Source: a plasmid
DNA length: 50,633 bases
Strand: one strand, 5' to 3'
Sequence record: NZ_CP025194.1
Position numbers and translations under genes: made by a program
Part shown: piece by piece, positions 1 to 50,633 of the stretch
How positions within the stretch are numbered: position 1 is the stretch's first letter
How the letters are laid out: each line of letters opens with the position of its first letter
The notes under the pieces: generated by a model
Told to the model about the DNA's origin: nothing
Databases searched by the model: none
The model's input: only the letters and a program-made list of their open reading frames with translations

Positions 1-21
1 AAGCTTGAGTAACCCATCAGG

Positions 22-279
22 ATGGGTTATGCCGTACTCATGGTGACTGTGCTACGTATCCACGGCCTGCGCGTGGTCATCTATGCCAACGATCACGATC
101 CTGCTCATGTCCATGTCTTCAGGGACGGTGAGGCCAAGATCAACCTGATCGGCAGGGGTGGTCTTCCGGAGCTGGTCTGGGCTGAGGGCATGAGCCGCGG
201 CGAAGTTCGCCGCACCATGCAGGCCATTACCGGGCAACAGGCCGTCCTGCTGGCGCGCTGGAGGGAAATCCATGGCTGA
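22..279 (+). CDS. DUF4160-family small protein (copy 1)
   Basis: 85-aa ORF overlapping the downstream DUF2442-like ORF by 8 bp. The pair architecture is typical of DUF4160/DUF2442 gene pairs. Confidence 0.5.
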   Translation: MGYAVLMVTVLRIHGLRVVIYANDHDPAHVHVFRDGEAKINLIGRGGLPELVWAEGMSRGEVRRTMQAITGQQAVLLARWREIHG

Positions 280-673
280 GCTGACCGATACGCAGATCGA
301 CGAGGCGCTGGCCCGGGGTGCGGCCGCGCGCCGGACGGAGCCCAGGGCCACTGCGGCACGCTATGACCGCCGGGCCGGGCGCGTGATCGTGGAACTGAGC
401 AACGGCTGCACCTTTGCCTTCCCGGCACGCCTGGCGCAGGGGCTGGAGAGGGCAACCGACGAGCAGCTGGCCGAGGTCGAGGTGCTGGGAACCGGCACGG
501 GCCTGCACTGGGAGGCGCTCGATGCCGACCTCTCGGTCCCCGGTCTCCTGGCGGGACTGTTCGGCACCAGGGCCTTCATGGCCCGTCAGGCCGGGCGGGC
601 TACGTCGCCCGCGAAAGCAGCGGCGGCACGAGCCAACGGCGCCAGGGGAGGGCGGCCACGGAAGTCCGCATGA
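272..673 (+). CDS. DUF2442-family protein (copy 1)
   Basis: 133-aa ORF translationally coupled to the upstream 85-aa ORF. Ala/Arg-rich C-terminal tail. Confidence 0.45.
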   Translation: MAELTDTQIDEALARGAAARRTEPRATAARYDRRAGRVIVELSNGCTFAFPARLAQGLERATDEQLAEVEVLGTGTGLHWEALDADLSVPGLLAGLFGTRAFMARQAGRATSPAKAAAARANGARGGRPRKSA

Positions 674-707
674 GGCTCTTCAGACGAGGACCATCGGCTT
701 GATAGCG

Positions 708-727
708 TCAGAAGGCCAAACGGTCGT
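708..727. promoter_or_regulatory. Inverted repeat ggccaaacg-gt-cgtttggcc immediately upstream of the resolvase remnant. Possible res subsite or hairpin.
   Basis: 9-bp arms with a 2-nt spacer, read directly. No T-tract follows. Confidence 0.3.
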
Positions 728-772
728 TTGGCCTCTTGCTACAAAGCTCCGAATGCCCACAAATGAACGGGT

Positions 773-1120
773 ATGCAGCCCGTCGTCGCCTACTATCGCG
801 TGTCCACCGAACGCCAGGGTCGATCCGGGCTAGGACTGAATGCCCAGCGAGAGCGGTGCACAACTTTCGCCGTCCAGAACGGCCTTGAGATCGTCGAGGC
901 GTTCACCGAGGTGGAAACGGGAAAGGGGAGCGACGCGCTTGATCGCCGGCCACAGCTCGTTCTGGCGCTGGCAGCCGCAAAGCGGCAACGCAGCGTTATG
1001 CTGGCTGCCAAGCTCGATCGGCTGTCACGCGACGTTCATTTTATTGCAGGGCTGATGGTGCAGCGGGTACCGTTCCTCGTCGCCGAACTCGGCGCTGACG
1101 TGGACCCATTCATGCTGCAC
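773..1120 (+). pseudogene. Serine recombinase (resolvase) N-terminal catalytic domain, truncated by an IS6-family insertion
   Basis: Has the YYRVSTERQ catalytic serine motif. The ORF runs into the IS6-A terminal repeat at ~1121 and lacks a C-terminal HTH. Confidence 0.7.
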
Positions 1121-1965
1121 GGTATCGTCAAGTTGGCCGGCTGCAAGCTTGCCCGAGCTGCCTACCACCGGTAGTGGGGTAGGATGACCGCCTCCGCCGC
1201 CTGCCCCAGCTTCGTCGGGTATCGCTTTCCGGGCGAGATCATCAGCCAGGCGGTGTGGCTTTACTTCCGCTTCCCACTCAGCTTGCGGATGGTGGAAGAG
1301 ATGCTGGCCTTCCGCGGCATCGTGGTTAGCCACGAAACACTGCGGCAATGGGGCCGCAAGTTCGGTCAGGCTTTCGCCAATCAGATCCGCTGCCGGCTGC
1401 CCCGCACCGGTGACAAGTGGCACCTGGATGAGGTCGTCCTCAAGATCAACGGTGTGACGCACTGGCTCTGGCGCGCCGTCGATCAGGCCGGGATGGTACT
1501 CGACGTGCTGGTGCAGAGCCGACGAGATAAGCAAGCTGCCAAGCGGCTACTCAGGAAGCTGCTGAAGCGGCAGATGCGGCCACCACGGGTCATGATCACC
1601 GACAAGCTGGCAAGCTACGGCGCCGCGAAGAAGGAGGTGATGCCTTCCGTCGAGCACCGCCAGCACAAGGGGCTGAACAACCGTGCTGAGAACTCGCATC
1701 AGCCGACACGACGACGAGAACGAGGGATGAAGCGGTTCAAGTCTGCTGGCCAAGCGCAGCGCTTCCTTTCCGCCCACGACGGGATCAACAACCTCTTTCA
1801 TCTTCGCCGGGACCACGTCACCGCCTGCGACTATCGTGCCGCAAGGGCGCGCGCGTTCGAGGTGTGGTCCGAGGTCAGCGGGGTCGCCGCACGGGCTTGA
1901 TCGCCCTGGAGTCCGTTGTCGATCAATCAGCCTCGTCGCCTCGAGGCCGGCAAGTTGACGGTGCC
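1121..1965 (+). mobile_element. IS6-family insertion sequence, type A (copy 1, ~845 bp)
   Basis: Imperfect terminal inverted repeats GGTATCGTCAAGTTGGCCGGC (1121..) and GGCACCGTCAACTTGCCGGCC (reverse complement, ending 1965) bracket a single transposase gene. Confidence 0.65.
1184..1900 (+). CDS. tnp: IS6-family (IS26-like) DDE transposase
   Basis: 238 aa with the IS6 hallmark motifs YRFP..EII..AVWLY.RF.LS.R.VEE, GDKWHLDEV, WRAVDQ, NNRAENSH, FKS..QAQRFL. Confidence 0.9.
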   Translation: MTASAACPSFVGYRFPGEIISQAVWLYFRFPLSLRMVEEMLAFRGIVVSHETLRQWGRKFGQAFANQIRCRLPRTGDKWHLDEVVLKINGVTHWLWRAVDQAGMVLDVLVQSRRDKQAAKRLLRKLLKRQMRPPRVMITDKLASYGAAKKEVMPSVEHRQHKGLNNRAENSHQPTRRRERGMKRFKSAGQAQRFLSAHDGINNLFHLRRDHVTACDYRAARARAFEVWSEVSGVAARA

Positions 1966-2116
1966 CGCCGGTGCGCTCGTGCCGCCCGGCACCGATCTGG
2001 CCTTCCACGTCGGCCTCCATCAGCATCTGCAGCACCGCCTCCGCGACACTGCGCAGGAAGTTACCATCTCCTGCTTTCGCCAGCAGGTCCGCCAGTGGCA
2101 ATCTCTCCTCGGTCAT
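1966..2116 (-). pseudogene. IS256-family transposase N-terminal 50-aa fragment, cut by IS6-A
   Basis: MTEERLPLADLLAKAGDGNFLRSVAEAVLQMLMEADVEGQIGAGRHERT matches the conserved IS256/mutator N-terminus. Homology stops exactly at the IS6-A end. Confidence 0.6.
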
Positions 2117-2372
2117 CGGGTCCTCGGCCGGTCAGGGGTGGGAGCGTCGCAACTCCACGCTAGCCGCCAGGTCCGATGGCCACCCAAGCCCTACATCCCG
2201 GCCAACGCCGGATTTTCTACCACCTCCGCGGCGTTACCGACGGCAGAGATCACACCATCTCGCGCTACCAAGACCTGCCGCGGCCCGAAAGATGGCAGAA
2301 CTGAGCTCTCCGAGCCCTTCCGCGCACACGTCTCGTAAGCAACAGGATGCGCCCTTGCGGATCAACTTGTAT

Positions 2373-2392
2373 GCACTACAATTATGTAGTGC
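2373..2392. promoter_or_regulatory. Operator-like palindrome gcactaca-atta-tgtagtgc overlapping a putative -10 (tacaat) upstream of the RHH antitoxin
   Basis: 8-bp perfect arms with a 4-bp spacer, 24 bp upstream of the antitoxin start. Candidate -35 ttgcgg at 2355..2360. Confidence 0.4.
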
Positions 2393-2415
2393 GTGAAGAG
2401 CTACGGAGGTTCATC

Positions 2416-2658
2416 ATGGGTGTACCGATCTCCATCCGCCTGGATGACGAGGTGCGGGCCGAGCTGGAGGCCCAGGCCCAATCGCGGGGCATCGGCTTGG
2501 CTACCCTGCTGCGCGATCTCGCGACCGAGGCGGCCCGCGCGACGCGGCGTGCCCGCATCCGGCAGGCCAGCGCGGTGGTCGGCACCCGCGTCGCCGCGTC
2601 CGACGAGGCGCGGGCCTTCTACGAGGACTGGGGCACGCCGCGCGCCGATGCCGGCTGA
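2416..2658 (+). CDS. Ribbon-helix-helix (CopG/PemI-like) antitoxin
   Basis: MGVPISIRLDDEVRAELEAQAQSRGIGLATLLRDLA is RHH-like. RBS ggagg at 2406..2410. Overlaps the downstream toxin start by 11 bp. Confidence 0.6.
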   Translation: MGVPISIRLDDEVRAELEAQAQSRGIGLATLLRDLATEAARATRRARIRQASAVVGTRVAASDEARAFYEDWGTPRADAG

Positions 2659-3022
2659 CCCGCCCCTCGCCCTCAGGGCGGGACAGATCGTGCTGGCTGA
2701 CTGGCGCGGCGACGCCCTGCCCAAGGAGCCGAACAAGCGGCGCCCGGCCGTGGTGGTGGAGGATGACGGCCTGTTCGCACCGTCCTACCCGAACGCCATC
2801 CTGGTGCCGCTGACCGAGGACGACGGGTTGGTCATTCCCGACTTGGCGGTAGCCATCGCGCCGACAGCGGAGAACGGCTGCAGCAAGCCATGCTGGGCGG
2901 TATCGCACCTGGTCGCCACCACCTCCAAGCTGCGACTGAGGGCGACCGCGTCGCACATCACGCCCGAGCAGCTGGCCGCCATCCGCCGGCAGGTCGCGCT
3001 CGCGGTCGGCGTGGAAGGATAG
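2648..3022 (+). CDS. PemK/MazF-family toxin (type II toxin-antitoxin endoribonuclease)
   Basis: GQIVLADW..KRRPAVVV..ILVPLTEDDG..AIAP is the PemK/Kid fold signature. Coupled to the upstream RHH gene. Confidence 0.7.
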   Translation: MPADPPLALRAGQIVLADWRGDALPKEPNKRRPAVVVEDDGLFAPSYPNAILVPLTEDDGLVIPDLAVAIAPTAENGCSKPCWAVSHLVATTSKLRLRATASHITPEQLAAIRRQVALAVGVEG

Positions 3023-3041
3023 CCCGTTCATCCCCTCAGGC

Positions 3042-3871
3042 GGCATTGTCACGTTGGCCAGCTCTGGCTGGAACGAACTCGTCAGGCGAAGCTGGCGGCA
3101 TGCCGTCCGAGCCCACCACCTACCCCGGCTACCGTTTCCCGGCCGAGGTCATCCAGCATGCTGTCTGGCTCTACCACCTGTTCAGCCTGAGCCTACGCGA
3201 CATCGAGCTGATCCTGGCCGAGCGGGGCGTAGTGGTCAGCTACGAGAGTATCCGTCGCTGGTGCCTCCGCTTCGGCACGGAGTTCGCGGCCAAGCTGCGC
3301 AAGCGGCGGCCAAGACCGGGCGACACCTGGCACATGGATGAAGTTTACCTGAAGATCAACGGCGAGCTCTTTTATCTCTGGCGCGCGGTGGATCAGCACG
3401 GAGTCGTGCTCGACATCCTGGTGCAGGAGCGCCGCAATGCCACGGCCGCCAAACGCTTCTTCAAGCGCCTGCTGGTGGGCCTCCAGTATAGACCCCGCAA
3501 GATCGTCACCGATGGGCTCCGCAGCTATGGCGTTGCACAGCGAGAGGTCCTACCCGGTGTGCAGCATCGGACCAGCCGCTACCTGAACAATCGTGCCGAG
3601 AATTCCCATAGGCCGACCCGACGTCGAGAACGCGCGATGCAGCGCTTCAAGTCAGCCGGGCAAGCCCAGCGGTTTTTGTCGGCGCACGCGATGATCTATG
3701 GCCACTTCCGTCCGCGGCGGCACCTGATGGCCGCCGATCAATACCGGCGCGAGCGCTCCAAGGCCTTTCGGATCTGGCGGCAGGAGACGTGTGCCCATAT
3801 GGCGGCGTAAGGTCACGCAAACTCCGCCTCGCGGTCAAACTTGCTCGGTCCCCAAACAACGTGACAATGCC
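3042..3871 (+). mobile_element. IS6-family insertion sequence, type B (copy 1, 830 bp)
   Basis: 14-bp terminal inverted repeats GGCATTGTCACGTT at 3042.. and the reverse complement ending 3871. Same 830-bp element at 10445..11274, 31756..32585 (inverted) and partial at 12726..13238 (inverted). Confidence 0.85.
3100..3810 (+). CDS. tnp: IS6-family transposase (type B)
   Basis: MPSEPTTYPGYRFPAEVIQHAVWLY..GDTWHMDEV..WRAVDQ..NNRAENSH..FKSAGQAQRFL. 236 aa, starting at the ATG at 3100. Confidence 0.9.
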   Translation: MPSEPTTYPGYRFPAEVIQHAVWLYHLFSLSLRDIELILAERGVVVSYESIRRWCLRFGTEFAAKLRKRRPRPGDTWHMDEVYLKINGELFYLWRAVDQHGVVLDILVQERRNATAAKRFFKRLLVGLQYRPRKIVTDGLRSYGVAQREVLPGVQHRTSRYLNNRAENSHRPTRRRERAMQRFKSAGQAQRFLSAHAMIYGHFRPRRHLMAADQYRRERSKAFRIWRQETCAHMAA

Positions 3872-4224
3872 CTCTGACGCAACCGTACAGTCAGAGCGGT
3901 CAGAACATCTGATCGTTCAGACGTATTGCCGTCAGGACGTCTTTTCGTATTGTCGACATGCTGATTTACTGATGGAGCGTCTCGCTTTGGTGCAAGAGTG
4001 CCCGAGATTGACGTGGATGGCTGGACGTCTGATTGACCTATTGTCTGCCCGCCATGTCGATCATACGTATGGCTGAAATGACGTATTGCCGTCTGAGTGT
4101 CGTGCTCTACTTCTACACGCGCTGGAGGAACGCTCGGGTCTTCTGCTCGTACTGCAGCCACTAACTCTGTCGGAGGCATCCTTTGCTCTGCCTCGGGCAG
4201 CTTCTTAAATGTGGGCTTGGCCAT
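3872..4224 (-). pseudogene. ParG-like partition protein, C-terminus removed by IS6-B insertion (intact homolog at 46955..47455)
   Basis: Identical to the N-terminal 117 aa of the 166-aa protein at 46955..47455. The reading frame continues into IS sequence after 3872. Confidence 0.55.
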
Positions 4225-4943
4225 CAGGCGGTCACCCGGACAGCGGGCATGGCATCTTTGGCTCGAAGTTCTGCGATGAGATCCGTGACCTCACGGAAGG
4301 CGGCACCGCTAGTCGGCATTTTCCCCGTGTGGCTTACCGCCTCATAATCTGCTCGGTGGCCAAGGGAAGCACTGAGCCGTTCTAGCCCTGCCTCCTTAAT
4401 CTGTTCAGCGGCATGAGCAGCTACAGCCGTAGTTCGGACGGAATTGAGAATTACCCAAGCCGGGATTGTCCGCCGAGTAGTAACAGAAAGTGACTTGACC
4501 TTTGTGGCAGTGGTCCTGGCTTCGTAGAGGTCTGCTTCCGAAGCCTTGCAGGGGATGAGCACCGCATCAGCCGAGGCAATTGCTACCGACGATCCAAGGT
4601 TCTCAAACCCGGCGGTGTCCACGAGCACTAAATCGTGCTGGTCGCGCAACTCAGCAATTAAGTGTGCCAATCGGTCCTCGTTTGCCTCGGCGCAGTGAGT
4701 AATCTCCGGTCCCTCGTAAATGGCAGTCAGCCATCGAGAAAGCGCCTTGTTGGGGTCCGCATCCACCACCGCGAAAGATGCTCCTTCACGCGCTAGGAGA
4801 GCAGACATAGCCCGACCCAATGTGCTCTTGCCGCAGCCTCCTTTTGACCCAGCCAATGTTAAGACCGTCATTCGCATACGTCTCCGTGTCCGAGCGATCA
4901 TACGTTCGTACATCATGTCTACCATACGCAATGTCGCTCGCAC
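4224..4943 (-). CDS. parA: ParA-family partition ATPase (intact copy)
   Basis: Deviant Walker A GSKGGCGKST. 239 aa. The true start may be an internal Met (MRMTVLTLAGSKGG). Confidence 0.8.
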   Translation of the reverse strand: MRATLRMVDMMYERMIARTRRRMRMTVLTLAGSKGGCGKSTLGRAMSALLAREGASFAVVDADPNKALSRWLTAIYEGPEITHCAEANEDRLAHLIAELRDQHDLVLVDTAGFENLGSSVAIASADAVLIPCKASEADLYEARTTATKVKSLSVTTRRTIPAWVILNSVRTTAVAAHAAEQIKEAGLERLSASLGHRADYEAVSHTGKMPTSGAAFREVTDLIAELRAKDAMPAVRVTA

Positions 4944-5030
4944 AAACGTACTATCCTACAAACGTACGTATTGCCGATCATACGTACGTTTATGCGGTGG
5001 ATGTCTGAATAGGTTCGGCTATCTATGAAG
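4944..5030. promoter_or_regulatory. parA upstream region with ACGTA/CATACG repeats. Candidate promoter or centromere-like site.
   Basis: gatcatacgt occurs twice (4888, 4975), plus aacgtac repeats and acgtattgccg (4966..4976), related to the GACGTATTGCCGTC copies at 3920..3933 and 4081..4094. Confidence 0.3.
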
Positions 5031-5078
5031 CAGCCTCAGAAATTGTGCTGGAGACGCAGAGGCGCTGGCGGATGCCAG

Positions 5079-7346
5079 CTACAGAGCCAGCCACTCCCGA
5101 AGCTTCGACCAGCGCCGACGTGCGCCCTGGTTGCGCACGGCGATCGCCAGGGCCCGGCGCTGCCCGAGCAGCACCACCAGCTTCCGGCCCCGCGTCACGC
5201 CGGTGTAGAGCAGGTTGCGCGCCAGCATGGCGTAGTGCTGCGTGCTGAGCGGGATCACCACCGCCGGGTACTCCGAGCCCTGCGCCTTGTGGATGGTGGT
5301 GGCGTAGGCCAGCACCAGCTCGTCCAGCTCCCCGAAGCCGTAGGCGACCTCCCGCCCGTCGAAGACCACCGTGAGTTCGCCCTCCTCCAGGTCCACCCCC
5401 GTGATCACCCCGAGGTCGCCGTTGAACACCTCCCGGTCGTAGCTGTTGGCCACCTGCATGACCTTGTCGCCGGGTCCGAAGGTCCAGCCGAAGCGCTCGA
5501 CCCGCAACTCGCCCGGTGGGTTCAGCGCCGCCTGCAGCGCGGCGTTCAGCGCCCGGGCCCCCAGCCCGCCCCGGTTCATCGGGCAGAGCACCTGCACGTC
5601 GCGGATCGGATCCAGCCCGAAGCGCGCCGGGATGCGCTCGCCCACCAGGGTGAGCAGCTTGCGCACACCCTCCTCCGGCTCCTCCGCCCCGACGAAGAAG
5701 AAATCGCTGCCCGCCGTCGCCTCGAGCTCCGGCAGCCGACCGCGGTTGATGCGGTGGGCACTGGTCACGATCCGGCTCTCGGCCGCCTGCCGGAACACCT
5801 CGCTCAGCCGCACCACCGGCAGGGCGCCCGAGCCGATGACGTCGGCCAGCACCTGCCCGGGGCCCACCGAGGGGAGCTGGTCCACGTCGCCCACCAGCAG
5901 CAGCGCCGCCTCGTCGGGCAGCGCCCGCAGCAGGGCGCGCATCAGCGGCACGTCCACCATCGAGGTCTCGTCGGCCACCAGCAGCTGGCAGGCCAGCGGG
6001 TTCGTCTCGTCGCGCTTGAACCCACCGGTCTTCGGGTCGCTCTCCAGCAGCCGGTGGATGGTCCGCGCCTCCAGCCCCGTGCTCTCGCTCAGGCGCCTGG
6101 CCGCGCGTCCCGTCGGGGCGCAGAGCGCCACCTCCACCCCCCTGGCCCGGATCACCCGCAGGATGGCGTTCACCAGCGTGGTCTTGCCCACACCCGGGCC
6201 GCCGGTGATCACCAGCACCTTCGACGAGAGCGCCAGCCGCAGCGCCTCGCGCTGGCTCGCCGCAAGCGCCAGGCCGGTGCGCTCCTCCACCCAGGGGATC
6301 GCCCGGTCGGCATCGATGGCGGGCCAGGGCTGCCGCCCCGTGGCCAGCCGCCGCAGCCGCCCGGCGATCGCCTGCTCGGCGCGGTACAGCCCGGCCAGGA
6401 ACACGCAAGGCTCGCCCTCCAGCGTGTCGGCCACCACCTCGCCGGCCTCGAGTTCGAGAGCCAGGGCCGCCTCGATCAGTTCGGCCGGCACTTCCAGCAG
6501 CTTGCCCGCGAGCGCGGTCAGCTCGCCCACCGGCAGGCCGCAGTGCCCCTCACCGGTGGCCTCGGCCAGGGCGAAGGAGATCCCGGCGCGGACCCGGATC
6601 ATCGCCGTGGGCTCGATGCCGAGCCTGCCCGCCACGGTATCGGCGGTGCGGAAGCCGATGCCGCGGATGTCGCGCGCCAGGCGGTAGGGGTTCTCCGTGA
6701 TCACCTCCACGGCCCGCGCCCCGTAGGTCTTGTAGATCCGCACCGCCCGCGAGGTGCCCACCCCGTTGGCATGGAGGAACAGCATGATCTCGCGGATCAC
6801 CTTCTGCCCGGCCCAGCCGGCGACGATGCGCGCCGCCCGCCTGGGGCCGATGCCGGTGACCTCGCGCAGCCGGGCGGGCTCGGCCTCGATCAGCTCGAAC
6901 ACCGCCTCGCCGAAGGCCGCCACCAGCCTGGCCGCGTAGACCGGACCGATGCCGCGGATCATGCCCGAGCCCAGGTACTTCTCGATGCCCTCGCGCGTCG
7001 TGGGCTGGGTGGCCTTGAGGAAGCCCGCCTTGAACTGCAGGCCGTGGGCGCGGTCGTTGACCCAGGCGCCCGACATCTGCACCCACTCGCCGGCCGAGAT
7101 CGAGGCGGCGTGGCCCACCACGGTGACCAGGTCGCGGTGGCCGCGCGCCTTGACCCGCAGCACGCAGAAGCCGTTCTCGGCGCTGTGGTAGGTGACGCGT
7201 TCCACCAGCCCGGCCAGCGCCTCGGTGGGCAGGCCGCGATCCGCCGGGGCAGGGGAGGGGGCCGGGATGCCGGGCATGGCCCTCAGATAGGCGAACGGCA
7301 GCGCGGGCGCATCGGGCTCATGTCTCCACCAGGATTGTCTGATCAC
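5079..7346 (-). CDS. RecD2-like SF1B DNA helicase (N-terminal HhH region plus AAA/UvrD-like core), copy 1
   Basis: Walker A GGPGVGKTT, DEAD-like LLVADETSMVD, and a C-terminal YATTIHKAQGSEYP..LLYTGVTRGRKLVVLLG motif typical of RecD/TraA-like helicases. Confidence 0.85.
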   Translation of the reverse strand: MIRQSWWRHEPDAPALPFAYLRAMPGIPAPSPAPADRGLPTEALAGLVERVTYHSAENGFCVLRVKARGHRDLVTVVGHAASISAGEWVQMSGAWVNDRAHGLQFKAGFLKATQPTTREGIEKYLGSGMIRGIGPVYAARLVAAFGEAVFELIEAEPARLREVTGIGPRRAARIVAGWAGQKVIREIMLFLHANGVGTSRAVRIYKTYGARAVEVITENPYRLARDIRGIGFRTADTVAGRLGIEPTAMIRVRAGISFALAEATGEGHCGLPVGELTALAGKLLEVPAELIEAALALELEAGEVVADTLEGEPCVFLAGLYRAEQAIAGRLRRLATGRQPWPAIDADRAIPWVEERTGLALAASQREALRLALSSKVLVITGGPGVGKTTLVNAILRVIRARGVEVALCAPTGRAARRLSESTGLEARTIHRLLESDPKTGGFKRDETNPLACQLLVADETSMVDVPLMRALLRALPDEAALLLVGDVDQLPSVGPGQVLADVIGSGALPVVRLSEVFRQAAESRIVTSAHRINRGRLPELEATAGSDFFFVGAEEPEEGVRKLLTLVGERIPARFGLDPIRDVQVLCPMNRGGLGARALNAALQAALNPPGELRVERFGWTFGPGDKVMQVANSYDREVFNGDLGVITGVDLEEGELTVVFDGREVAYGFGELDELVLAYATTIHKAQGSEYPAVVIPLSTQHYAMLARNLLYTGVTRGRKLVVLLGQRRALAIAVRNQGARRRWSKLREWLAL

Positions 7347-7424
7347 CGAGGGCGTAAAGGCAGAGGTGCGCCAGACGATCCACGGGCGGTGGACTGGCTC
7401 AACAAGCTTGAGTAACCCATCAGG

Positions 7425-7682
7425 ATGGGTTATGCCGTACTCATGGTGACTGTGCTACGTATCCACGGCCTGCGCGTGGTCATCTATGCCAACGATCACG
7501 ATCCTGCTCATGTCCATGTCTTCAGGGACGGTGAGGCCAAGATCAACCTGATCGGCAGGGGTGGTCTTCCGGAGCTGGTCTGGGCTGAGGGCATGAGCCG
7601 CGGCGAAGTTCGCCGCACCATGCAGGCCATTACCGGGCAACAGGCCGTCCTGCTGGCGCGCTGGAGGGAAATCCATGGCTGA
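7425..7682 (+). CDS. DUF4160-family small protein (copy 2)
   Basis: Identical to 22..279. Confidence 0.5.
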   Translation: MGYAVLMVTVLRIHGLRVVIYANDHDPAHVHVFRDGEAKINLIGRGGLPELVWAEGMSRGEVRRTMQAITGQQAVLLARWREIHG

Positions 7683-8076: not shown

Positions 8077-8175
8077 GGCTCTTCAGACGAGGACCATCGG
8101 CTTGATAGCGTCAGAAGGCCAAACGGTCGTTTGGCCTCTTGCTACAAAGCTCCGAATGCCCACAAATGAACGGGT

Positions 8176-8523
8176 ATGCAGCCCGTCGTCGCCTACTATC
8201 GCGTGTCCACCGAACGCCAGGGTCGATCCGGGCTAGGACTGAATGCCCAGCGAGAGCGGTGCACAACTTTCGCCGTCCAGAACGGCCTTGAGATCGTCGA
8301 GGCGTTCACCGAGGTGGAAACGGGAAAGGGGAGCGACGCGCTTGATCGCCGGCCACAGCTCGTTCTGGCGCTGGCAGCCGCAAAGCGGCAACGCAGCGTT
8401 ATGCTGGCTGCCAAGCTCGATCGGCTGTCACGCGACGTTCATTTTATTGCAGGGCTGATGGTGCAGCGGGTACCGTTCCTCGTCGCCGAACTCGGCGCTG
8501 ACGTGGACCCATTCATGCTGCAC
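8176..8523 (+). pseudogene. Resolvase N-terminal fragment (copy 2)
   Basis: Identical to 773..1120. Confidence 0.7.
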
Positions 8524-10444: not shown

Positions 10445-11274
10445 GGCATTGTCACGTTGGCCAGCTCTGGCTGGAACGAACTCGTCAGGCGAAGCTGGCG
10501 GCATGCCGTCCGAGCCCACCACCTACCCCGGCTACCGTTTCCCGGCCGAGGTCATCCAGCATGCTGTCTGGCTCTACCACCTGTTCAGCCTGAGCCTACG
10601 CGACATCGAGCTGATCCTGGCCGAGCGGGGCGTAGTGGTCAGCTACGAGAGTATCCGTCGCTGGTGCCTCCGCTTCGGCACGGAGTTCGCGGCCAAGCTG
10701 CGCAAGCGGCGGCCAAGACCGGGCGACACCTGGCACATGGATGAAGTTTACCTGAAGATCAACGGCGAGCTCTTTTATCTCTGGCGCGCGGTGGATCAGC
10801 ACGGAGTCGTGCTCGACATCCTGGTGCAGGAGCGCCGCAATGCCACGGCCGCCAAACGCTTCTTCAAGCGCCTGCTGGTGGGCCTCCAGTATAGACCCCG
10901 CAAGATCGTCACCGATGGGCTCCGCAGCTATGGCGTTGCACAGCGAGAGGTCCTACCCGGTGTGCAGCATCGGACCAGCCGCTACCTGAACAATCGTGCC
11001 GAGAATTCCCATAGGCCGACCCGACGTCGAGAACGCGCGATGCAGCGCTTCAAGTCAGCCGGGCAAGCCCAGCGGTTTTTGTCGGCGCACGCGATGATCT
11101 ATGGCCACTTCCGTCCGCGGCGGCACCTGATGGCCGCCGATCAATACCGGCGCGAGCGCTCCAAGGCCTTTCGGATCTGGCGGCAGGAGACGTGTGCCCA
11201 TATGGCGGCGTAAGGTCACGCAAACTCCGCCTCGCGGTCAAACTTGCTCGGTCCCCAAACAACGTGACAATGCC
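10445..11274 (+). mobile_element. IS6-family IS type B (copy 2). Left arm of the composite structure around the dehydrogenase gene.
   Basis: Same terminal repeats as copy 1. Its right-hand terminal repeat ends at 11274, after which unique lower-GC sequence begins. Confidence 0.85.
10503..11213 (+). CDS. tnp: IS6-family transposase (type B, copy 2)
   Basis: Identical to 3100..3810. Confidence 0.9.
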   Translation: MPSEPTTYPGYRFPAEVIQHAVWLYHLFSLSLRDIELILAERGVVVSYESIRRWCLRFGTEFAAKLRKRRPRPGDTWHMDEVYLKINGELFYLWRAVDQHGVVLDILVQERRNATAAKRFFKRLLVGLQYRPRKIVTDGLRSYGVAQREVLPGVQHRTSRYLNNRAENSHRPTRRRERAMQRFKSAGQAQRFLSAHAMIYGHFRPRRHLMAADQYRRERSKAFRIWRQETCAHMAA

Positions 11275-13512: not shown

Positions 13513-13515
13513 TGG

Positions 13516-31755: not shown

Positions 31756-32585
31756 GGCATTGTCACGTTGTTTGGGGACCGAGCAAGTTTGACCGCGAGG
31801 CGGAGTTTGCGTGACCTTACGCCGCCATATGGGCACACGTCTCCTGCCGCCAGATCCGAAAGGCCTTGGAGCGCTCGCGCCGGTATTGATCGGCGGCCAT
31901 CAGGTGCCGCCGCGGACGGAAGTGGCCATAGATCATCGCGTGCGCCGACAAAAACCGCTGGGCTTGCCCGGCTGACTTGAAGCGCTGCATCGCGCGTTCT
32001 CGACGTCGGGTCGGCCTATGGGAATTCTCGGCACGATTGTTCAGGTAGCGGCTGGTCCGATGCTGCACACCGGGTAGGACCTCTCGCTGTGCAACGCCAT
32101 AGCTGCGGAGCCCATCGGTGACGATCTTGCGGGGTCTATACTGGAGGCCCACCAGCAGGCGCTTGAAGAAGCGTTTGGCGGCCGTGGCATTGCGGCGCTC
32201 CTGCACCAGGATGTCGAGCACGACTCCGTGCTGATCCACCGCGCGCCAGAGATAAAAGAGCTCGCCGTTGATCTTCAGGTAAACTTCATCCATGTGCCAG
32301 GTGTCGCCCGGTCTTGGCCGCCGCTTGCGCAGCTTGGCCGCGAACTCCGTGCCGAAGCGGAGGCACCAGCGACGGATACTCTCGTAGCTGACCACTACGC
32401 CCCGCTCGGCCAGGATCAGCTCGATGTCGCGTAGGCTCAGGCTGAACAGGTGGTAGAGCCAGACAGCATGCTGGATGACCTCGGCCGGGAAACGGTAGCC
32501 GGGGTAGGTGGTGGGCTCGGACGGCATGCCGCCAGCTTCGCCTGACGAGTTCGTTCCAGCCAGAGCTGGCCAACGTGACAATGCC
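31756..32585 (-). mobile_element. IS6-family IS type B, copy 4 (inverted)
   Basis: 830 bp with terminal repeats GGCATTGTCACGTT at both ends. Transposase identical to the other copies. Confidence 0.85.
31817..32527 (-). CDS. tnp: IS6-family transposase (type B, copy 4)
   Basis: Identical 236-aa product. Confidence 0.9.
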   Translation of the reverse strand: MPSEPTTYPGYRFPAEVIQHAVWLYHLFSLSLRDIELILAERGVVVSYESIRRWCLRFGTEFAAKLRKRRPRPGDTWHMDEVYLKINGELFYLWRAVDQHGVVLDILVQERRNATAAKRFFKRLLVGLQYRPRKIVTDGLRSYGVAQREVLPGVQHRTSRYLNNRAENSHRPTRRRERAMQRFKSAGQAQRFLSAHAMIYGHFRPRRHLMAADQYRRERSKAFRIWRQETCAHMAA

Positions 32586-44610: not shown

Positions 44611-45002
44611 CCGCGCAGCGCCGCCATGATACGCCGCAACGCGGCGGTGCTGATCGCCTCGTCGACGCGGATCACCGTGCCGTCCGGCAAGGCTACCTCG
44701 ATCCGGGGCGAGGCCGCCGGCGCAGCCTCGGCCCGGGACGTGGGTGTCGGCAGATCTGTCGCCACCTGCAGCGGCATGAACATCGGCGCAGGCTCGGCCA
44801 CCAGCACGCCTTGCCGTGCCTGCTTGCGCCAAGCCCATAGTACGCTCCGGCTCACCTCATGCCGGCGGGCTACCTCGACGAAACACGCGCCAGGACGCTC
44901 AGCCTCCGCCACGATCCGCAACTTGTCCGCCGCTCGCCATTGCCGCCGGCGCTCAACGCCGCTGATGATCTCCATGTCCCAAGCCGCCCCCGTCCTTAAC
45001 AA
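44607..45002 (-). CDS. tnpA: IS66 Orf1 (TnpA, HTH)
   Basis: MEIISGVERRRQWRAADKLRIVAEAERPGA..VARRHEVSRSVLWAWRK. Confidence 0.8.
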   Translation of the reverse strand: MLRTGAAWDMEIISGVERRRQWRAADKLRIVAEAERPGACFVEVARRHEVSRSVLWAWRKQARQGVLVAEPAPMFMPLQVATDLPTPTSRAEAAPAASPRIEVALPDGTVIRVDEAISTAALRRIMAALRG

Positions 45003-45156
45003 CGCTCCTACGAGCGTCGATAAGATCAGAAGACAGGTTCAACCCCAGGCCGGAAGGCGGCCCTCAGCGGAGGGGTACGCTCGAAGCTCCCCGTCCGACG
45101 GCAAGGCGGCACGACATCGGTATGCCTGGGAAGAAGAGCTCTCAGACAGCGCTTAC

Positions 45157-45548
45157 CATCAGCCTGCGCAGCGCGGCGAAGCTGCAGAATCAGGGAGAAC
45201 CGCTGACCGAGGCGGATCTGTACGACGAGGACGGCCTGCCCGTGTGATTGCCGTGGACAGCTCGGTGCTGATCGCCATCCTGCGGCGGGAACCGGAGGCG
45301 CGGATGCCTTCCTGCACATCATCGCCGGGGCCGGCATGCATGTGGTGGCACAGGACCGGGAGCAGGCGGAGACAGCCCGGGAAGCGTTCCGGCGTATGGC
45401 AAGGGGCGTCACCCGGCCGCGCTCAACCTTGGCGACTGCGCTTCCTATGCCCTGGCCAAGTGCTGGAACCTGCCCCTGCTCTTCGAGGGCAATGACTTCC
45501 CGAGGACCGATATCGTCCCGGCCATTCCGGCGCGAGCAATGGGTTAGA
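45157..45548 (+). pseudogene. Decayed vapBC module: C-terminal 27 codons of a VapB/FitA-like antitoxin (45157..45240) followed by a VapC PIN gene with an internal deletion and a frameshift
   Basis: ...LTEADLYDEDGLPV* then [19 protein letters not shown], with ..[45 protein letters not shown] recoverable only by switching frames. The antitoxin N-terminus is replaced by the IS66 terminus. Confidence 0.6.
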
Positions 45549-45695
45549 CTGGATGTCTATCTAAGGTGGTACATCCCACCTCAGACAGACGAATGTTTCA
45601 TAATAGCAACAAATATCGCTCATACCAATTGACGAGGCCCAGCAGCCTCACTTGCCTCTCTGGCCGTTCAAGTGCTTTTGAATGGGTTGTACCGG

Positions 45696-46616
45696 TTACG
45701 CTTTAATCAGACGAGGCATGACCGGTGATTTCGACGGTTTCAGTGTCAATCCGCGTTCATCCACTTCTAATTCTGCCCTTGGATAGACTGCACATGCAAG
45801 ACCAAGGTTTTCTAGAAACCGCGGCTTGAAGTGGTGGAGACCTTTATAACCAACTCCAAACTGTCCTTGTAGCGCTTTCCAGGAAATCGGCTTTGGACTC
45901 TGCAGGACATGTAGGCGGTAAGTTAGCCAGCAGTAGATATCCAATGCCATGCTATTGTTGGAGAGAGCCTTGATTGCTGCTTCCTCGATCGGAACAGGAT
46001 GCTTCTGGAGTTGCTCAAAAAAGCTCTCTGAGAGGCGAACGGTATCGGTGAAAAGTGATCCCTGAGACGTGTCGTCGCTTCCAACGAACATCGCTGTATC
46101 CACGATGTTTTGGTTGACCAAACCAGCCCGACCAGCGGTCCGAATGTGGAACGTTAGTCTGCAGCGTGAGATCCGTTCCGCCTGTTCCCGAACGTCCTTA
46201 AAAGACTTACCACCGATTGGAATGCCGAGACGCGATAACCACGCGCGGAGGCTGCGTCCAAGCTCGATTTCCCGCCCTCCAGTCCGAAGTGCTTCGGATT
46301 GAAGAAAGAGTAAAATTAGACGGGCGCGACTCCCGTAAGGCACCCCTACCCACTCTGCTTCCTCGCAAGAGTCCACAGTTCGCCGACCTGGTTCGACCAG
46401 AAGGGTTACGTGCTCGGAACTGATCTTCCAAATGGCATCGTCGGGGAGACGTTTGTGCGGGAGCGCTGCTTGGGTCCAGCCAGAGTAGATGAAGCCAACG
46501 TTGGAATCCTCGTCGGCCATGTATGACGAAGCGGCTTCCACAACGCGCCGGTCGATGTCGGTTGCCAGGGCTGCCATCTTGCCCTGGGTCTCGATCAGAC
46601 GATGCACCGTCCCCAC
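45696..46616 (-). CDS. repA: Plasmid replication initiator RepA (RPA family)
   Basis: 306 aa. The DIYCWLTYRL motif is characteristic of RPA-type initiators. Iteron array immediately upstream. Confidence 0.75.
   Translation of the reverse strand: MGTVHRLIETQGKMAALATDIDRRVVEAASSYMADEDSNVGFIYSGWTQAALPHKRLPDDAIWKISSEHVTLLVEPGRRTVDSCEEAEWVGVPYGSRARLILLFLQSEALRTGGREIELGRSLRAWLSRLGIPIGGKSFKDVREQAERISRCRLTFHIRTAGRAGLVNQNIVDTAMFVGSDDTSQGSLFTDTVRLSESFFEQLQKHPVPIEEAAIKALSNNSMALDIYCWLTYRLHVLQSPKPISWKALQGQFGVGYKGLHHFKPRFLENLGLACAVYPRAELEVDERGLTLKPSKSPVMPRLIKA
46363..46378. repeat. Solitary iteron copy (TCGCAAGAGTCCACAG) inside the repA coding sequence
   Basis: Exact 16-bp match to the upstream iterons, ~240 bp into repA. 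Confidence 0.6.
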
Positions 46617-46689
46617 CGGCTATCTCCCCAGACTTCAGCCCCTTATGCCACGGCAACTGGATCTGTCGCCTGTGGACTCCTGCGAGCGA

Positions 46690-46937
46690 AGCTATTTGAG
46701 GTTATTAGAGATTCTAACTATTAGCTTGTTCGCAAGAGTCCACGGGATAACCGGCAGAAGTCATTGATTCAACGTTTAGGCGTATCGCAAGAGTCCACAG
46801 ACCACTCGCAAGAGTCCTCGGCTGCCTTGTGAGCTGAAGGACGGCTGGCAATGTTTCCACTTCAGCCAGACGAGCCCGATTCGGTTACTCTTTTGCTCGC
46901 AAGAGTCCACAGTGGACATTGCTCGCAAGAGTCCACA
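46690..46937. repeat. oriV: Origin-like region: AT-rich tract (46690..46729) followed by five iterons TCGCAAGAGTCC(A/T)C(A/G) at 46730, 46785, 46806, 46897 and 46923
   Basis: Direct repeats read in the sequence. Spacing of 55, 21, 91 and 26 bp. Confidence 0.75.
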
Positions 46938-46954
46938 CCCATGTGTCATGCTGG

Positions 46955-47455
46955 TCACCCGCCACGAACCTTACGTCGGGGGGTTCGATCTTCGAGATCG
47001 GCTGCGGCCACCTTTATCCCGGCATCCCGCAAGGCGTGTGTCAGAACCTGCTTGAGCGTAACTCCCCGTTTTTCGGAGGATGCCAGCACTGCATCGAGAG
47101 TACTCTGACGCAACCGTACAGTCAGAGCGGTCAGAACATCTGATCGTTCAGACGTATTGCCGTCAGGACGTCTTTTCGTATTGTCGACATGCTGATTTAC
47201 TGATGGAGCGTCTCGCTTTGGTGCAAGAGTGCCCGAGATTGACGTGGATGGCTGGACGTCTGATTGACCTATTGTCTGCCCGCCATGTCGATCATACGTA
47301 TGGCTGAAATGACGTATTGCCGTCTGAGTGTCGTGCTCTACTTCTACACGCGCTGGAGGAACGCTCGGGTCTTCTGCTCGTACTGCAGCCACTAACTCTG
47401 TCGGAGGCATCCTTTGCTCTGCCTCGGGCAGCTTCTTAAATGTGGGCTTGGCCAT
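46955..47455 (-). CDS. ParG-like partition/DNA-binding protein with C-terminal RHH-like domain (intact copy, 166 aa)
   Basis: Directly downstream of parA. C-terminus SSEKRGVTLKQVLTHALRDAGIKVAA is RHH-like. Contains two exact GACGTATTGCCGTC copies within the coding region (47151..47164, 47312..47325). Confidence 0.5.
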   Translation of the reverse strand: MAKPTFKKLPEAEQRMPPTELVAAVRAEDPSVPPARVEVEHDTQTAIRHFSHTYDRHGGQTIGQSDVQPSTSISGTLAPKRDAPSVNQHVDNTKRRPDGNTSERSDVLTALTVRLRQSTLDAVLASSEKRGVTLKQVLTHALRDAGIKVAAADLEDRTPRRKVRGG

Positions 47456-48173
47456 CAGGCGGTCACCCGGACAGCGGGCATGGCATCTTTGGCTCGAAGT
47501 TCTGCGATGAGATCCGTGACCTCACGGAAGGCGGCACCGCTAGTCGGCATTTTCCCCGTGTGGCTTACCGCCTCATAATCTGCTCGGTGGCCAAGGGAAG
47601 CACTGAGCCGTTCTAGCCCTGCCTCCTTAATCTGTTCAGCGGCATGAGCAGCTACAGCCGTAGTTCGGACGGAATTGAGAATTACCCAAGCCGGATTGTC
47701 CGCCGAGTAGTAACAGAAAGTGACTTGACCTTTGTGGCAGTGGTCCTGGCTTCGTAGAGGTCTGCTTCCGAAGCCTTGCAGGGGATGAGCACCGCATCAG
47801 CCGAGGCAATTGCTACCGACGATCCAAGGTTCTCAAACCCGGCGGTGTCCACGAGCACTAAATCGTGCTGGTCGCGCAACTCAGCAATTAAGTGTGCCAA
47901 TCGGTCCTCGTTTGCCTCGGCGCAGTGAGTAATCTCCGGTCCCTCGTAAATGGCAGTCAGCCATCGAGAAAGCGCCTTGTTGGGGTCCGCATCCACCACC
48001 GCGAAAGATGCTCCTTCACGCGCTAGGAGAGCAGACATAGCCCGACCCAATGTGCTCTTGCCGCAGCCTCCTTTTGACCCAGCCAATGTTAAGACCGTCA
48101 TTCGCATACGTCTCCGTGTCCGAGCGATCATACGTTCGTACATCATGTCTACCATACGCAATGTCGCTCGCAC
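47455..48173 (-). pseudogene. parA: parA with a 1-bp deletion (ccgg versus ccggg at ~47692) relative to the copy at 4224..4943
   Basis: ORF truncated to 163 aa (…TTRRTIRLG), with the remaining C-terminal coding sequence out of frame. Confidence 0.6.
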
Positions 48174-48308
48174 AAACGTACTATCCTACAAACGTACGTA
48201 TTGCCGATCATACGTACGTTTATGCGGTGGATGTCTGAATAGGTTCGGCTATCTATGAAGCAGCCTCAGAAATTGTGCTGGAGACGCAGAGGCGCTGGCG
48301 GATGCCAG

Positions 48309-50576
48309 CTACAGAGCCAGCCACTCCCGAAGCTTCGACCAGCGCCGACGTGCGCCCTGGTTGCGCACGGCGATCGCCAGGGCCCGGCGCTGCCCGAGCA
48401 GCACCACCAGCTTCCGGCCCCGCGTCACGCCGGTGTAGAGCAGGTTGCGCGCCAGCATGGCGTAGTGCTGCGTGCTGAGCGGGATCACCACCGCCGGGTA
48501 CTCCGAGCCCTGCGCCTTGTGGATGGTGGTGGCGTAGGCCAGCACCAGCTCGTCCAGCTCCCCGAAGCCGTAGGCGACCTCCCGCCCGTCGAAGACCACC
48601 GTGAGTTCGCCCTCCTCCAGGTCCACCCCCGTGATCACCCCGAGGTCGCCGTTGAACACCTCCCGGTCGTAGCTGTTGGCCACCTGCATGACCTTGTCGC
48701 CGGGTCCGAAGGTCCAGCCGAAGCGCTCGACCCGCAACTCGCCCGGTGGGTTCAGCGCCGCCTGCAGCGCGGCGTTCAGCGCCCGGGCCCCCAGCCCGCC
48801 CCGGTTCATCGGGCAGAGCACCTGCACGTCGCGGATCGGATCCAGCCCGAAGCGCGCCGGGATGCGCTCGCCCACCAGGGTGAGCAGCTTGCGCACACCC
48901 TCCTCCGGCTCCTCCGCCCCGACGAAGAAGAAATCGCTGCCCGCCGTCGCCTCGAGCTCCGGCAGCCGACCGCGGTTGATGCGGTGGGCACTGGTCACGA
49001 TCCGGCTCTCGGCCGCCTGCCGGAACACCTCGCTCAGCCGCACCACCGGCAGGGCGCCCGAGCCGATGACGTCGGCCAGCACCTGCCCGGGGCCCACCGA
49101 GGGGAGCTGGTCCACGTCGCCCACCAGCAGCAGCGCCGCCTCGTCGGGCAGCGCCCGCAGCAGGGCGCGCATCAGCGGCACGTCCACCATCGAGGTCTCG
49201 TCGGCCACCAGCAGCTGGCAGGCCAGCGGGTTCGTCTCGTCGCGCTTGAACCCACCGGTCTTCGGGTCGCTCTCCAGCAGCCGGTGGATGGTCCGCGCCT
49301 CCAGCCCCGTGCTCTCGCTCAGGCGCCTGGCCGCGCGTCCCGTCGGGGCGCAGAGCGCCACCTCCACCCCCCTGGCCCGGATCACCCGCAGGATGGCGTT
49401 CACCAGCGTGGTCTTGCCCACACCCGGGCCGCCGGTGATCACCAGCACCTTCGACGAGAGCGCCAGCCGCAGCGCCTCGCGCTGGCTCGCCGCAAGCGCC
49501 AGGCCGGTGCGCTCCTCCACCCAGGGGATCGCCCGGTCGGCATCGATGGCGGGCCAGGGCTGCCGCCCCGTGGCCAGCCGCCGCAGCCGCCCGGCGATCG
49601 CCTGCTCGGCGCGGTACAGCCCGGCCAGGAACACGCAAGGCTCGCCCTCCAGCGTGTCGGCCACCACCTCGCCGGCCTCGAGTTCGAGAGCCAGGGCCGC
49701 CTCGATCAGTTCGGCCGGCACTTCCAGCAGCTTGCCCGCGAGCGCGGTCAGCTCGCCCACCGGCAGGCCGCAGTGCCCCTCACCGGTGGCCTCGGCCAGG
49801 GCGAAGGAGATCCCGGCGCGGACCCGGATCATCGCCGTGGGCTCGATGCCGAGCCTGCCCGCCACGGTATCGGCGGTGCGGAAGCCGATGCCGCGGATGT
49901 CGCGCGCCAGGCGGTAGGGGTTCTCCGTGATCACCTCCACGGCCCGCGCCCCGTAGGTCTTGTAGATCCGCACCGCCCGCGAGGTGCCCACCCCGTTGGC
50001 ATGGAGGAACAGCATGATCTCGCGGATCACCTTCTGCCCGGCCCAGCCGGCGACGATGCGCGCCGCCCGCCTGGGGCCGATGCCGGTGACCTCGCGCAGC
50101 CGGGCGGGCTCGGCCTCGATCAGCTCGAACACCGCCTCGCCGAAGGCCGCCACCAGCCTGGCCGCGTAGACCGGACCGATGCCGCGGATCATGCCCGAGC
50201 CCAGGTACTTCTCGATGCCCTCGCGCGTCGTGGGCTGGGTGGCCTTGAGGAAGCCCGCCTTGAACTGCAGGCCGTGGGCGCGGTCGTTGACCCAGGCGCC
50301 CGACATCTGCACCCACTCGCCGGCCGAGATCGAGGCGGCGTGGCCCACCACGGTGACCAGGTCGCGGTGGCCGCGCGCCTTGACCCGCAGCACGCAGAAG
50401 CCGTTCTCGGCGCTGTGGTAGGTGACGCGTTCCACCAGCCCGGCCAGCGCCTCGGTGGGCAGGCCGCGATCCGCCGGGGCAGGGGAGGGGGCCGGGATGC
50501 CGGGCATGGCCCTCAGATAGGCGAACGGCAGCGCGGGCGCATCGGGCTCATGTCTCCACCAGGATTGTCTGATCAC
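48309..50576 (-). CDS. RecD2-like SF1B DNA helicase (copy 2)
   Basis: Identical to 5079..7346. Confidence 0.85.
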   Translation of the reverse strand: MIRQSWWRHEPDAPALPFAYLRAMPGIPAPSPAPADRGLPTEALAGLVERVTYHSAENGFCVLRVKARGHRDLVTVVGHAASISAGEWVQMSGAWVNDRAHGLQFKAGFLKATQPTTREGIEKYLGSGMIRGIGPVYAARLVAAFGEAVFELIEAEPARLREVTGIGPRRAARIVAGWAGQKVIREIMLFLHANGVGTSRAVRIYKTYGARAVEVITENPYRLARDIRGIGFRTADTVAGRLGIEPTAMIRVRAGISFALAEATGEGHCGLPVGELTALAGKLLEVPAELIEAALALELEAGEVVADTLEGEPCVFLAGLYRAEQAIAGRLRRLATGRQPWPAIDADRAIPWVEERTGLALAASQREALRLALSSKVLVITGGPGVGKTTLVNAILRVIRARGVEVALCAPTGRAARRLSESTGLEARTIHRLLESDPKTGGFKRDETNPLACQLLVADETSMVDVPLMRALLRALPDEAALLLVGDVDQLPSVGPGQVLADVIGSGALPVVRLSEVFRQAAESRIVTSAHRINRGRLPELEATAGSDFFFVGAEEPEEGVRKLLTLVGERIPARFGLDPIRDVQVLCPMNRGGLGARALNAALQAALNPPGELRVERFGWTFGPGDKVMQVANSYDREVFNGDLGVITGVDLEEGELTVVFDGREVAYGFGELDELVLAYATTIHKAQGSEYPAVVIPLSTQHYAMLARNLLYTGVTRGRKLVVLLGQRRALAIAVRNQGARRRWSKLREWLAL

Positions 50577-50633
50577 CGAGGGCGTAAAGGCAGAGGTGCG
50601 CCAGACGATCCACGGGCGGTGGACTGGCTCAAC

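Follow-up and report, generated by a model that had tools for sequence, protein, structure and literature searches.

A probable IS6/IS26-type tandem duplication of partition and helicase genes in a small plasmid of Roseomonas mucosa

The closest published case to the structure described here is that of IS26 in Acinetobacter baumannii, in which a deletion adjacent to the insertion sequence (IS) releases a translocatable unit (TU), and the reincorporation of this unit results in tandem copies (Harmer et al., 2022; PMC9602291). The conservative targeting of a resident IS copy by IS26 has also been described (Harmer, Moran and Hall, 2014; PMC4196232). Members of the IS6 family measure about 700-890 bp, possess one transposase open reading frame (ORF) of about 213-254 aa that spans most of the element and encodes a DDE transposase of the IS6/IS240 type, and are bounded by short, near-perfect terminal inverted repeats (IRs) of about 14 bp; they move through cointegrate formation only (by copy-in, and by conservative targeting of another copy), and simple insertion produces 8-bp direct target repeats, whose absence is to be expected once replicative events, within a molecule or through cointegrates, have taken place (Varani et al., 2021; PMC7986276). 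Here we describe a plasmid of Roseomonas mucosa (Acetobacteraceae), sequence record NZ_CP025194.1, whose entire 50,633 bp are referred to below as the window, and in which a unit ending in an 830-bp IS6-family element is present twice. With a probability of about 0.7, this structure represents a real and recent head-to-tail duplication, driven by IS6/IS26-type transposition, in a RepA/iteron plasmid of ~43 kb. The mechanism is already known and only this instance is new, a known kind of event in an unusual setting, involving maintenance genes and no resistance gene, in a member of the Acetobacteraceae.

The 830-bp element compares well with the family as described. It encodes a single transposase of 236 aa (3100-3810), which matches the Pfam family PF13610, DDE_Tnp_IS240 (E = 9.5e-39, 133 bits, against a cut-off of 27), and all three of its full 830-bp copies in the window carry perfect 15/15-bp terminal inverted repeats, GGCATTGTCACGTTG, at both ends. 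By its length, its DDE_Tnp_IS240 transposase and its short IRs starting with GG, the element is assigned to the IS6/IS26 family. Two of the copies, at 3042..3871 and 10445..11274, are on the plus strand, and the third, at 31756..32585, is inverted. Like other members of the family, the element occurs in multiple direct copies in plasmids and is associated with rearrangement footprints of replicative transposition. Its IR sequence is its own. An 8-bp target-site duplication is found at 0 of 13 copies (those in the window and in nine related loci), a result that speaks neither for nor against membership of the family, given the loss of such repeats expected after replicative events (Varani et al., 2021; PMC7986276). 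The right part of the element also survives as a 503-bp remnant on the minus strand at 12726-13228, with its right tip at 12726, inverted with respect to the second copy and 1.45 kb from it. The remnant and the third copy have three extra flanking bases in common (12723-13228 corresponding to 31753-32258).

The repeat and the joint at the IS tip

Self-BLAST of the window uncovers two head-to-tail copies of a 7,403-bp unit, one at 47103-50633 continued at 1-3871 (copy 1) and the other at 3872-11274 (copy 2). These coordinates assume a circular record, and the reading as a duplication holds if NZ_CP025194.1 is circular, at 50,633 bp. In circular order, the plasmid consists of B' (47103-50633), A (1-3871), B (3872-7403), A' (7404-11274) and C (11275-47102), with the IS at the end of A and of A', preceded by a segment designated X, and where the window closes on itself, end to start, the sequence is identical to that of the internal joint at 7403/7404. 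This is the arrangement proposed in a preliminary description of the sequence, made from the sequence alone, and it is upheld here. Segment 1-3872 matches 7404-11275 at 100%, gap-free, and segment 3872-7403 matches 47103-50633 at 99.97%, with one 1-bp gap and zero substitutions. The sole difference between the copies is thus one G, in parA, CCGGG at 4460-4464 (GGG at 4462-4464) versus CCGG at 47691-47694 (GG at 47693-47694); the possibility of identical parA sequences in both copies, raised in the preliminary description, is not what the record contains.

The two copies differ in how they begin. Copy 2 starts at a novel joint (3864..3879) that reads ...acaatgcc/ctctgacg..., the first base of B (3872) directly abutting the last base of the IS (3871, the right tip of the first IS copy), with the break falling within the small gene downstream of parA. 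One base (c) at this joint is ambiguous, position 11275 being likewise c. In copy 1, the same ctctgacg is preceded not by an IS but by unique sequence, ...gcatcgagagta (47091-47102), designated U, and B' runs unbroken leftward into the 3' end of a 166-aa ORF (46955-47102), then into seven iterons and then into repA. That B begins at the outer end of the IS and B' continues into unique sequence had been remarked upon earlier, and it is correct to the base. The undisrupted U/B' joint (47095..47110, with the junction at 47102/47103) is the ancestral one, collinear with the relatives of this plasmid and found once in each of 15 related loci. The replication functions lie outside the duplicated unit and are single: repA is at 45696..46616 on the minus strand, with a RepA_C domain and under this name in the RefSeq annotation of relatives, and the iterons, CTCGCAAGAGTCCACA, form one set at 46362..46937 (0 of 100 shuffles reach seven matches). 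By our own estimate, a random breakpoint would hit one of the six full IS tips in a plasmid of ~43 kb with a probability of ~1e-4. With a breakpoint exactly on an IS tip expected by chance in about 1 in 10^4 cases, the joint carries a signature of transposase chemistry.

The unit therefore resembles the TU of IS26 in being composed of one IS and the contiguous adjacent DNA, in the direct orientation of the IS copies (both unit copies of the IS being on the plus strand), in the joint exactly at the IS tip without a target-site duplication, and in the one-ended deletions by the same IS in sister plasmids described below. The differences are that only two copies are present, with no resistance gene or evident selection, that the cargo is one of maintenance functions (parA, the 5' part of a ParG-like gene, a RecD2 helicase and toxin-antitoxin-type pairs), and that the 830-bp element is an uncharacterised IS of the Acetobacteraceae.

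The left border sets this array further apart. Classical IS26 arrays contain n+1 IS copies for n units. Here, n IS copies accompany n units, the array is not bounded by an IS on both sides (there is none at 47102/47103), and it is not a pseudo-compound transposon amplified in the classical manner. Direct IS repeats with tandem units are what such amplification usually shows (PMC7986276), and both are seen here, so that RecA-dependent unequal crossing-over between directly repeated IS copies flanking the unit deserves consideration. That process, however, depends on the ancestral unit being flanked by an IS at either end, and n+1 copies remain afterwards, while the left border U/B' is without one and identical to the undisrupted joint in the 15 relatives, and no sister plasmid was found with an IS at 47102/47103. 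Unequal crossing-over is already contradicted by the sequence, and we regard it as highly improbable. The absence of an IS at the left border excludes, by the same token, the reincorporation of a TU into the deletion product from which it came, and requires that a copy-in attack struck a new target, one lying within the ParG-like gene.

Sister plasmids and the activity of the element

The window represents one member of a small-plasmid family in R. mucosa, a species isolated from human skin and clinical material, according to the source fields of related records. A literature search for published descriptions of R. mucosa plasmids returned nothing relevant. Four sister plasmids, p4-AD3 (NZ_CP034906.1), HV3 unnamed2 (NZ_CP025059.1), FDAARGOS_658 unnamed1 (NZ_CP044118.1) and pSKB0092-4 (AP031466.1), possess the unit once, with the U/B joint undisrupted and parA intact. 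The same undisrupted order, parA (215 or 239 aa), the 166-aa ORF and repA, is present in ten contigs from metagenome and read assemblies. Overall, 15 of 15 related loci show the GGG allele and a single U/B joint, and the IS/B joint is seen in none of the 15. The layout of p4-AD3 is U-B-X-IS-C, its IS having the same right flank as in the window (the IS followed by a zinc alcohol dehydrogenase gene), and its flanks on both sides, CCTCAGGC before the IS and CCCGCAAG after it, being identical to those of the second IS copy in the window, which accordingly occupies the ancestral position between X and C. As p4-AD3 shares both the U/B and the IS/C joints with the window, it has the structure expected of a progenitor. 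The sequences have hardly diverged: copy 2 of the unit is 100% identical to the single copy in HV3 (HV3 locus 6001-13403), the missing G in the parA of copy 1 is the only difference between the window and p4-AD3 over 13.3 kb and between the window and HV3 over 9.5 kb, and comparison with FDAARGOS_658 across ~36 kb shows two substitutions and no other indel.

The FDAARGOS_658 and p4-AD3 records are linear and incomplete in the form deposited, with breaks close to copies of the 830-bp IS. The ends of the p4-AD3 record abut in the window at 20692/20693, and it therefore represents a circular plasmid deposited without closure. The FDAARGOS_658 record stops 67 bp short of the IS and is missing the equivalent of 2976-21483, and therefore it cannot show whether that strain has the duplication.

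Comparison among the relatives also reveals what the element does. Between near-identical plasmids, the flank at the left inverted repeat (IRL) of a given IS copy is conserved, and the flank at the right inverted repeat (IRR) varies. A left flank GGCGCAGCAC is common to IS copies in p2-AD3 and pSKB0092-3, for example, and their right flanks differ. Relative to the window, FDAARGOS_658 lacks 29277-31755, a deletion of 2.5 kb that truncates the 5' part of a DUF1156 methylase gene, and p4-AD3 lacks 22268-31755, a deletion of 9.5 kb by which an entire defence-like island is gone. These deletions are nested, and both begin at the right tip of the third IS copy. On this comparative evidence, the 830-bp IS is active in this plasmid lineage of R. 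mucosa, and the nested, one-ended deletions would represent the same reaction as one releasing a B-X-IS circle or deleting C and U from a dimer. If the duplication is real, it documents, together with these deletions and variable right flanks, the reshaping of small R. mucosa plasmids by this IS, including the loss of a methylase/helicase defence-like island, and it provides a natural example of an IS6/IS26-family element duplicating partition, helicase and toxin-antitoxin-type backbone genes outside the context of antibiotic resistance.

Routes to the duplication and the possibility of an artefact

The proposed series of events starts from an ancestor with the order U-B-X-IS-C, as in p4-AD3, in which the transposase of the 830-bp IS would have carried out a replicative, copy-in attack of the right end onto the 8-bp target ctctgacg within the ParG-like gene. 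In one possible route, the attack would have been on the same molecule, in the deletion orientation, releasing a 7.4-kb circle of B-X-IS in which the IRR is joined to ctctgacg-B-X (a TU), and this circle could have entered an intact sister plasmid, via either a conservative IS-targeted reaction or homologous recombination anywhere in the 7.4 kb of identity. In another, a head-to-tail plasmid dimer would have been the substrate, and an attack on the second monomer would have deleted C and U, thereby producing the 50,633-bp molecule directly, in a single step; a circle of C-U-ctctgacg-IS would be excised and, as it would keep repA, could replicate. In a third, an intermolecular cointegrate between two plasmid copies would have been followed by recombination in C-U. 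Every route would yield U-B-X-IS/B-X-IS-C, with the second copy of the ParG-like gene cut after residue 117, and a later step, the loss of one G from the parA of copy 1, would leave one intact parA (in copy 2) and one intact ParG-like gene (in copy 1). The three routes need the same transposase step and are indistinguishable from the product, and a left border without an IS would be explained by a circle entering an intact plasmid as well as by a deletion within a dimer. The insertion of a TU next to an existing IS copy, suggested in the preliminary description, agrees with the exact joint at an IS6 terminus, with the layout and with the single-copy state of p4-AD3, and it stands as one of several equivalent IS-driven routes and not as the only one.

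A number of observations weigh against this interpretation. The IS/B joint was not found in PLSDB with a 300-bp query (the window's own record not being part of PLSDB), nor as an exact 36-mer in the GTDB representative genomes and JGI metagenome contigs. Similarly, a synthetic query for the reciprocal product, in which U-ctctgacg is joined to the IRL of the IS, returned only half-matches from PLSDB. Exact look-ups of the chimeric 129-aa ORF created at the joint, and of the frameshifted ParA with two alternative starts, found neither of them in 153 billion gene positions, which is a weak negative, because that collection evidently does not include the assembly from which the window comes. With the joint and the altered proteins found in none of the other collections searched, the structure rests on one assembly. 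The single difference between the two copies is a further concern, since a 1-bp change in a run of Gs is of a type that is typical of consensus errors in long-read assemblies. Finally, behaviour like that of IS26 is extrapolated to the 830-bp element from its family membership.

These points may be accounted for by an artefact of assembly or of the plasmid population, as follows. The dominant plasmid would be single-copy, the IS/B joint would stem from molecules present in the minority, either 7.4-kb circles in the free state or occasional duplicated plasmids, which the assembler threaded into the consensus, and the parA indel would be a consensus error in a repeat that the reads cannot phase. 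The uniqueness of the structure to this record fits such an explanation, and so do the GGG allele and the single U/B joint at all 15 other loci, the G-run deletion as the only difference from p4-AD3 and HV3 over the lengths compared, the position of the record start inside the repeat, and the linear, incomplete state of the FDAARGOS_658 and p4-AD3 records. Even then, however, the joint must exist in reads, since it is internal and coincides with the very tip of the IS; nor do the two ends of the record overlap. The remainder of the assembly is clean, judging from the ~36 kb aligned with FDAARGOS_658, so that a random homopolymer error is not especially likely, and polishing with multi-mapping reads would tend to equalise the copies and not to make them diverge. 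We consider such an artefact unlikely, if not negligibly so. A simpler error, circularisation with an untrimmed overlap, is rejected: it would place the false joint at the ends of the record, and the novel joint is internal, with no terminal overlap found by self-BLAST. The duplication is probably real, in line with the estimate given at the outset, and the chances of the parA indel being real, given a real duplication, are not much above even. The practical value of these observations lies mostly in flagging annotation and assembly quality in this plasmid family; they add no new mechanism or system.

The partition genes and the remainder of the plasmid

Type Ib partition loci combine a small Walker-type ParA with a small centromere-binding protein of the ribbon-helix-helix (RHH) type, such as ParG of TP228. 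The locus considered here is similar in encoding a small ParA (215 aa), in the overlap (ATGA) of parA with a small gene whose product has an RHH-modelled C-terminus, and in the position of the pair beside repA and iterons. It differs in that the predicted partner is of 166 aa, with a long, unconserved N-terminal part of low GC content and with no match to the ParG family. The intact parA is at 4224..4943 on the minus strand, where the starts annotated by RefSeq in relatives correspond to 4871 or 4925; the product is of 215 aa from 4871 and of 239 aa from 4943. In keeping with a small ParA ATPase of the deviant-Walker type, it matches the NCBIfam model ParA_partition at 4.6e-31 (below the equivalog cut-off), and the Pfam families VirC1, AAA_31, MipZ and CbiA above their cut-offs. 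Its counterpart in copy 1 (47455..48173, minus strand) carries the 1-bp deletion at 47692-47694, which puts the 239-aa ORF out of frame from about residue 160 onward and brings it to an end at 47682, with the loss of ~79 C-terminal residues.

The intact ParG-like gene, of 166 aa, is at 46955..47455 on the minus strand, its start overlapping the stop of the frameshifted parA, and the predicted RHH C-terminus is at about residues 108-145. The truncated gene in copy 2 (3835..4224, minus strand) retains only the 5' 353 nt of this ORF, encoding residues 1-117, followed by 12 IS-derived codons, which makes a 129-aa chimera. As the joint with the IS follows residue 117, at the start of helix 1, the product of copy 2 would be without either RHH helix. 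The intact state of parA in B and its frameshift in B', and the opposite distribution for the ParG-like gene, with its RHH C-terminus lost to the IS in B, had all been recognised before, and are confirmed.

As to the nature of the ParG-like protein, it has no Pfam or NCBIfam match, including any to the ParG family. A profile search with the 166-aa ORF retrieved 149 cluster representatives; most are of 65-130 aa, and what they have in common with it is the C-terminal ~58 residues. An AlphaFold model based on a 73-sequence alignment, which replaced an earlier run with three sequences of too low a confidence (predicted local distance difference test, pLDDT, of 43), has a pLDDT of 95-97 at residues 111-150. 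When this C-terminus was compared to the PDB by Foldseek, the top matches were uniformly RHH proteins, including Arc (template-modelling, TM, score of 0.89, target-normalised, and a root-mean-square deviation of 0.8 Å over 40 residues), CopG (TM 0.74-0.82), TacA1, VapB, AmrZ and MatP, with weak E-values, as the RHH domain is of only ~40 residues. Weak Pfam RHH matches are also found in at least a dozen members of this protein's family. Sequence searches of the PDB with two profiles produced spurious TAL-effector and ankyrin repeats, and sub-threshold matches to MazE7 and CopG. The modelling thus supports an RHH fold for the C-terminus and supports the gene as a downstream, predicted DNA-binding RHH partner of parA; of the earlier designation as a ParG-like gene with an RHH C-terminus, the RHH part is sustained and membership in the ParG sequence family is not. 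A shorter, internal start, which was considered in view of homologues of 92-95 aa, is rejected, no ATG, GTG or TTG being present between codons 22 and 115.

The 5' part of the ParG-like ORF, unconserved and of low GC content, contains a 14-mer, GACGTATTGCCGTC, twice per unit (3920-3933, 4080-4093, 47151-47164 and 47311-47324; four matches versus 0.31 expected), and these repeats are possible candidates for operator or centromere-type sites. The entire region from repA through the iterons and the ParG-like gene to parA (3872-5000 and 45001-48000) is of ~56% GC, versus 66% for the plasmid, and the GC content at third codon positions is 0.3-0.5 in the ParG-like ORF versus ~0.8 elsewhere. Such composition suggests a different origin for the replication/partition module from that of the rest of the plasmid.

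The sole intact parA is thus in copy 2, and the sole intact ParG-like gene is in copy 1. The preliminary description saw in this a reciprocal decay of the two copies. The complementary states of the genes are facts of the sequence, but decay as a process is an overstatement: the truncation of the ParG-like gene is the breakpoint itself, and exactly one change, of 1 bp, has followed the duplication; once parA is taken as the site of this change, the odds of its landing in the complementary copy were 50%. The gene states can reasonably be read as partition through trans-complementation of one copy by the other, a reading that collapses if the parA indel is a consensus error. Duplicated genes reportedly follow, in the model of Force et al., a course of duplication, degeneration and complementation. 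The present case is alike in that each copy keeps a different intact component of a two-gene system, and it differs in that, of the two degenerations, one is the breakpoint and one an unverified indel of a single base pair.

Should the indel be real, its position may matter. Only 590 bp (8% of the 7.4-kb unit) separate it from the left end, and therefore ~92% of collapses by homologous recombination would leave an intact ParG-like gene and a dead parA. The frameshift might then lock the duplication in place, with collapsed plasmids being lost, several toxin-antitoxin modules punishing the loss, and the complementary defects in partition maintaining an otherwise unstable tandem duplication. We regard this possibility as improbable. 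If true, it would be a case of duplication-degeneration-complementation in a plasmid, accomplished in a very short span of evolution, and, with a real duplication, the plasmid would offer a test bed for the stabilisation of tandem duplications by complementary defects. Another scenario is selected subfunctionalisation, in which the dosage of the par operon was doubled, selection favoured losing one parA, and the duplication is now held by the complementary defects. The survival of each function in one copy only is consistent with such a scenario, as are the tendency of most collapses to fix a dead parA and the lack of a second partition system in Pfam scans of the ORFs scanned in the rest of the plasmid. 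A single mutation, however, cannot show selection, the even chance of hitting this copy and the origin of the ParG-like truncation as a breakpoint speak against it, and the indel may be an error, so that selected subfunctionalisation appears very improbable.

Apart from the partition genes, the unit encodes a RecD2-type helicase of 755 aa on the minus strand (5079..7346 in copy 2 and 48309..50576 in copy 1), with the domains AAA_19, AAA_30, HHH_RecD2, OB_YrrC, SH3_13 and UvrD_C_2. The two ORFs are intact and identical, in agreement with the earlier remark that this gene was duplicated intact. The plus strand of the unit carries a DUF4160/DUF2442 gene pair (22..673, second copy at 7425-8076) and a fragment of a resolvase (serine recombinase) gene (773-1174), of which only the N-terminal catalytic domain is left and which is interrupted by an IS6-family element other than the 830-bp one, measuring 845 bp (1121..1965, tnp at 1184-1900, second copy at 8524-9368), with the IRs GGTATCGTCAAGTTG and GGCACCGTCAACTTG. 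Two small genes follow, and then the 830-bp IS. One of the two (2648..3022, second copy at 10051-10425) is named a PemK/MazF-family toxin in the RefSeq records of identical relatives, an identity that comes from annotation only, its product having no NCBIfam match.

Elsewhere on the plasmid, a three-gene cluster on the minus strand (22118-30279) is situated beside the right tip of the third IS copy. It encodes a DUF1156 adenine methylase (27052-30279; PADLOC HmaB, 2e-83), an MBL-fold protein (25730-27055) and a 1186-aa protein with PLD and SNF2 helicase domains (22118-25678; PADLOC PLD_Helicase, 9e-62, and HmaA, 5e-47), and by these matches it looks like a candidate anti-phage island of the Hma type. 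Two further repeats are present in the window: an IS21-type segment of 2.4 kb (istA/istB) occurs twice in direct orientation, at 13973-16385 and 34954-37379, with 97.4% identity, and an IS66-related stretch is found at 13551-13973 and at 42640-43061, the two being 77.8% identical.

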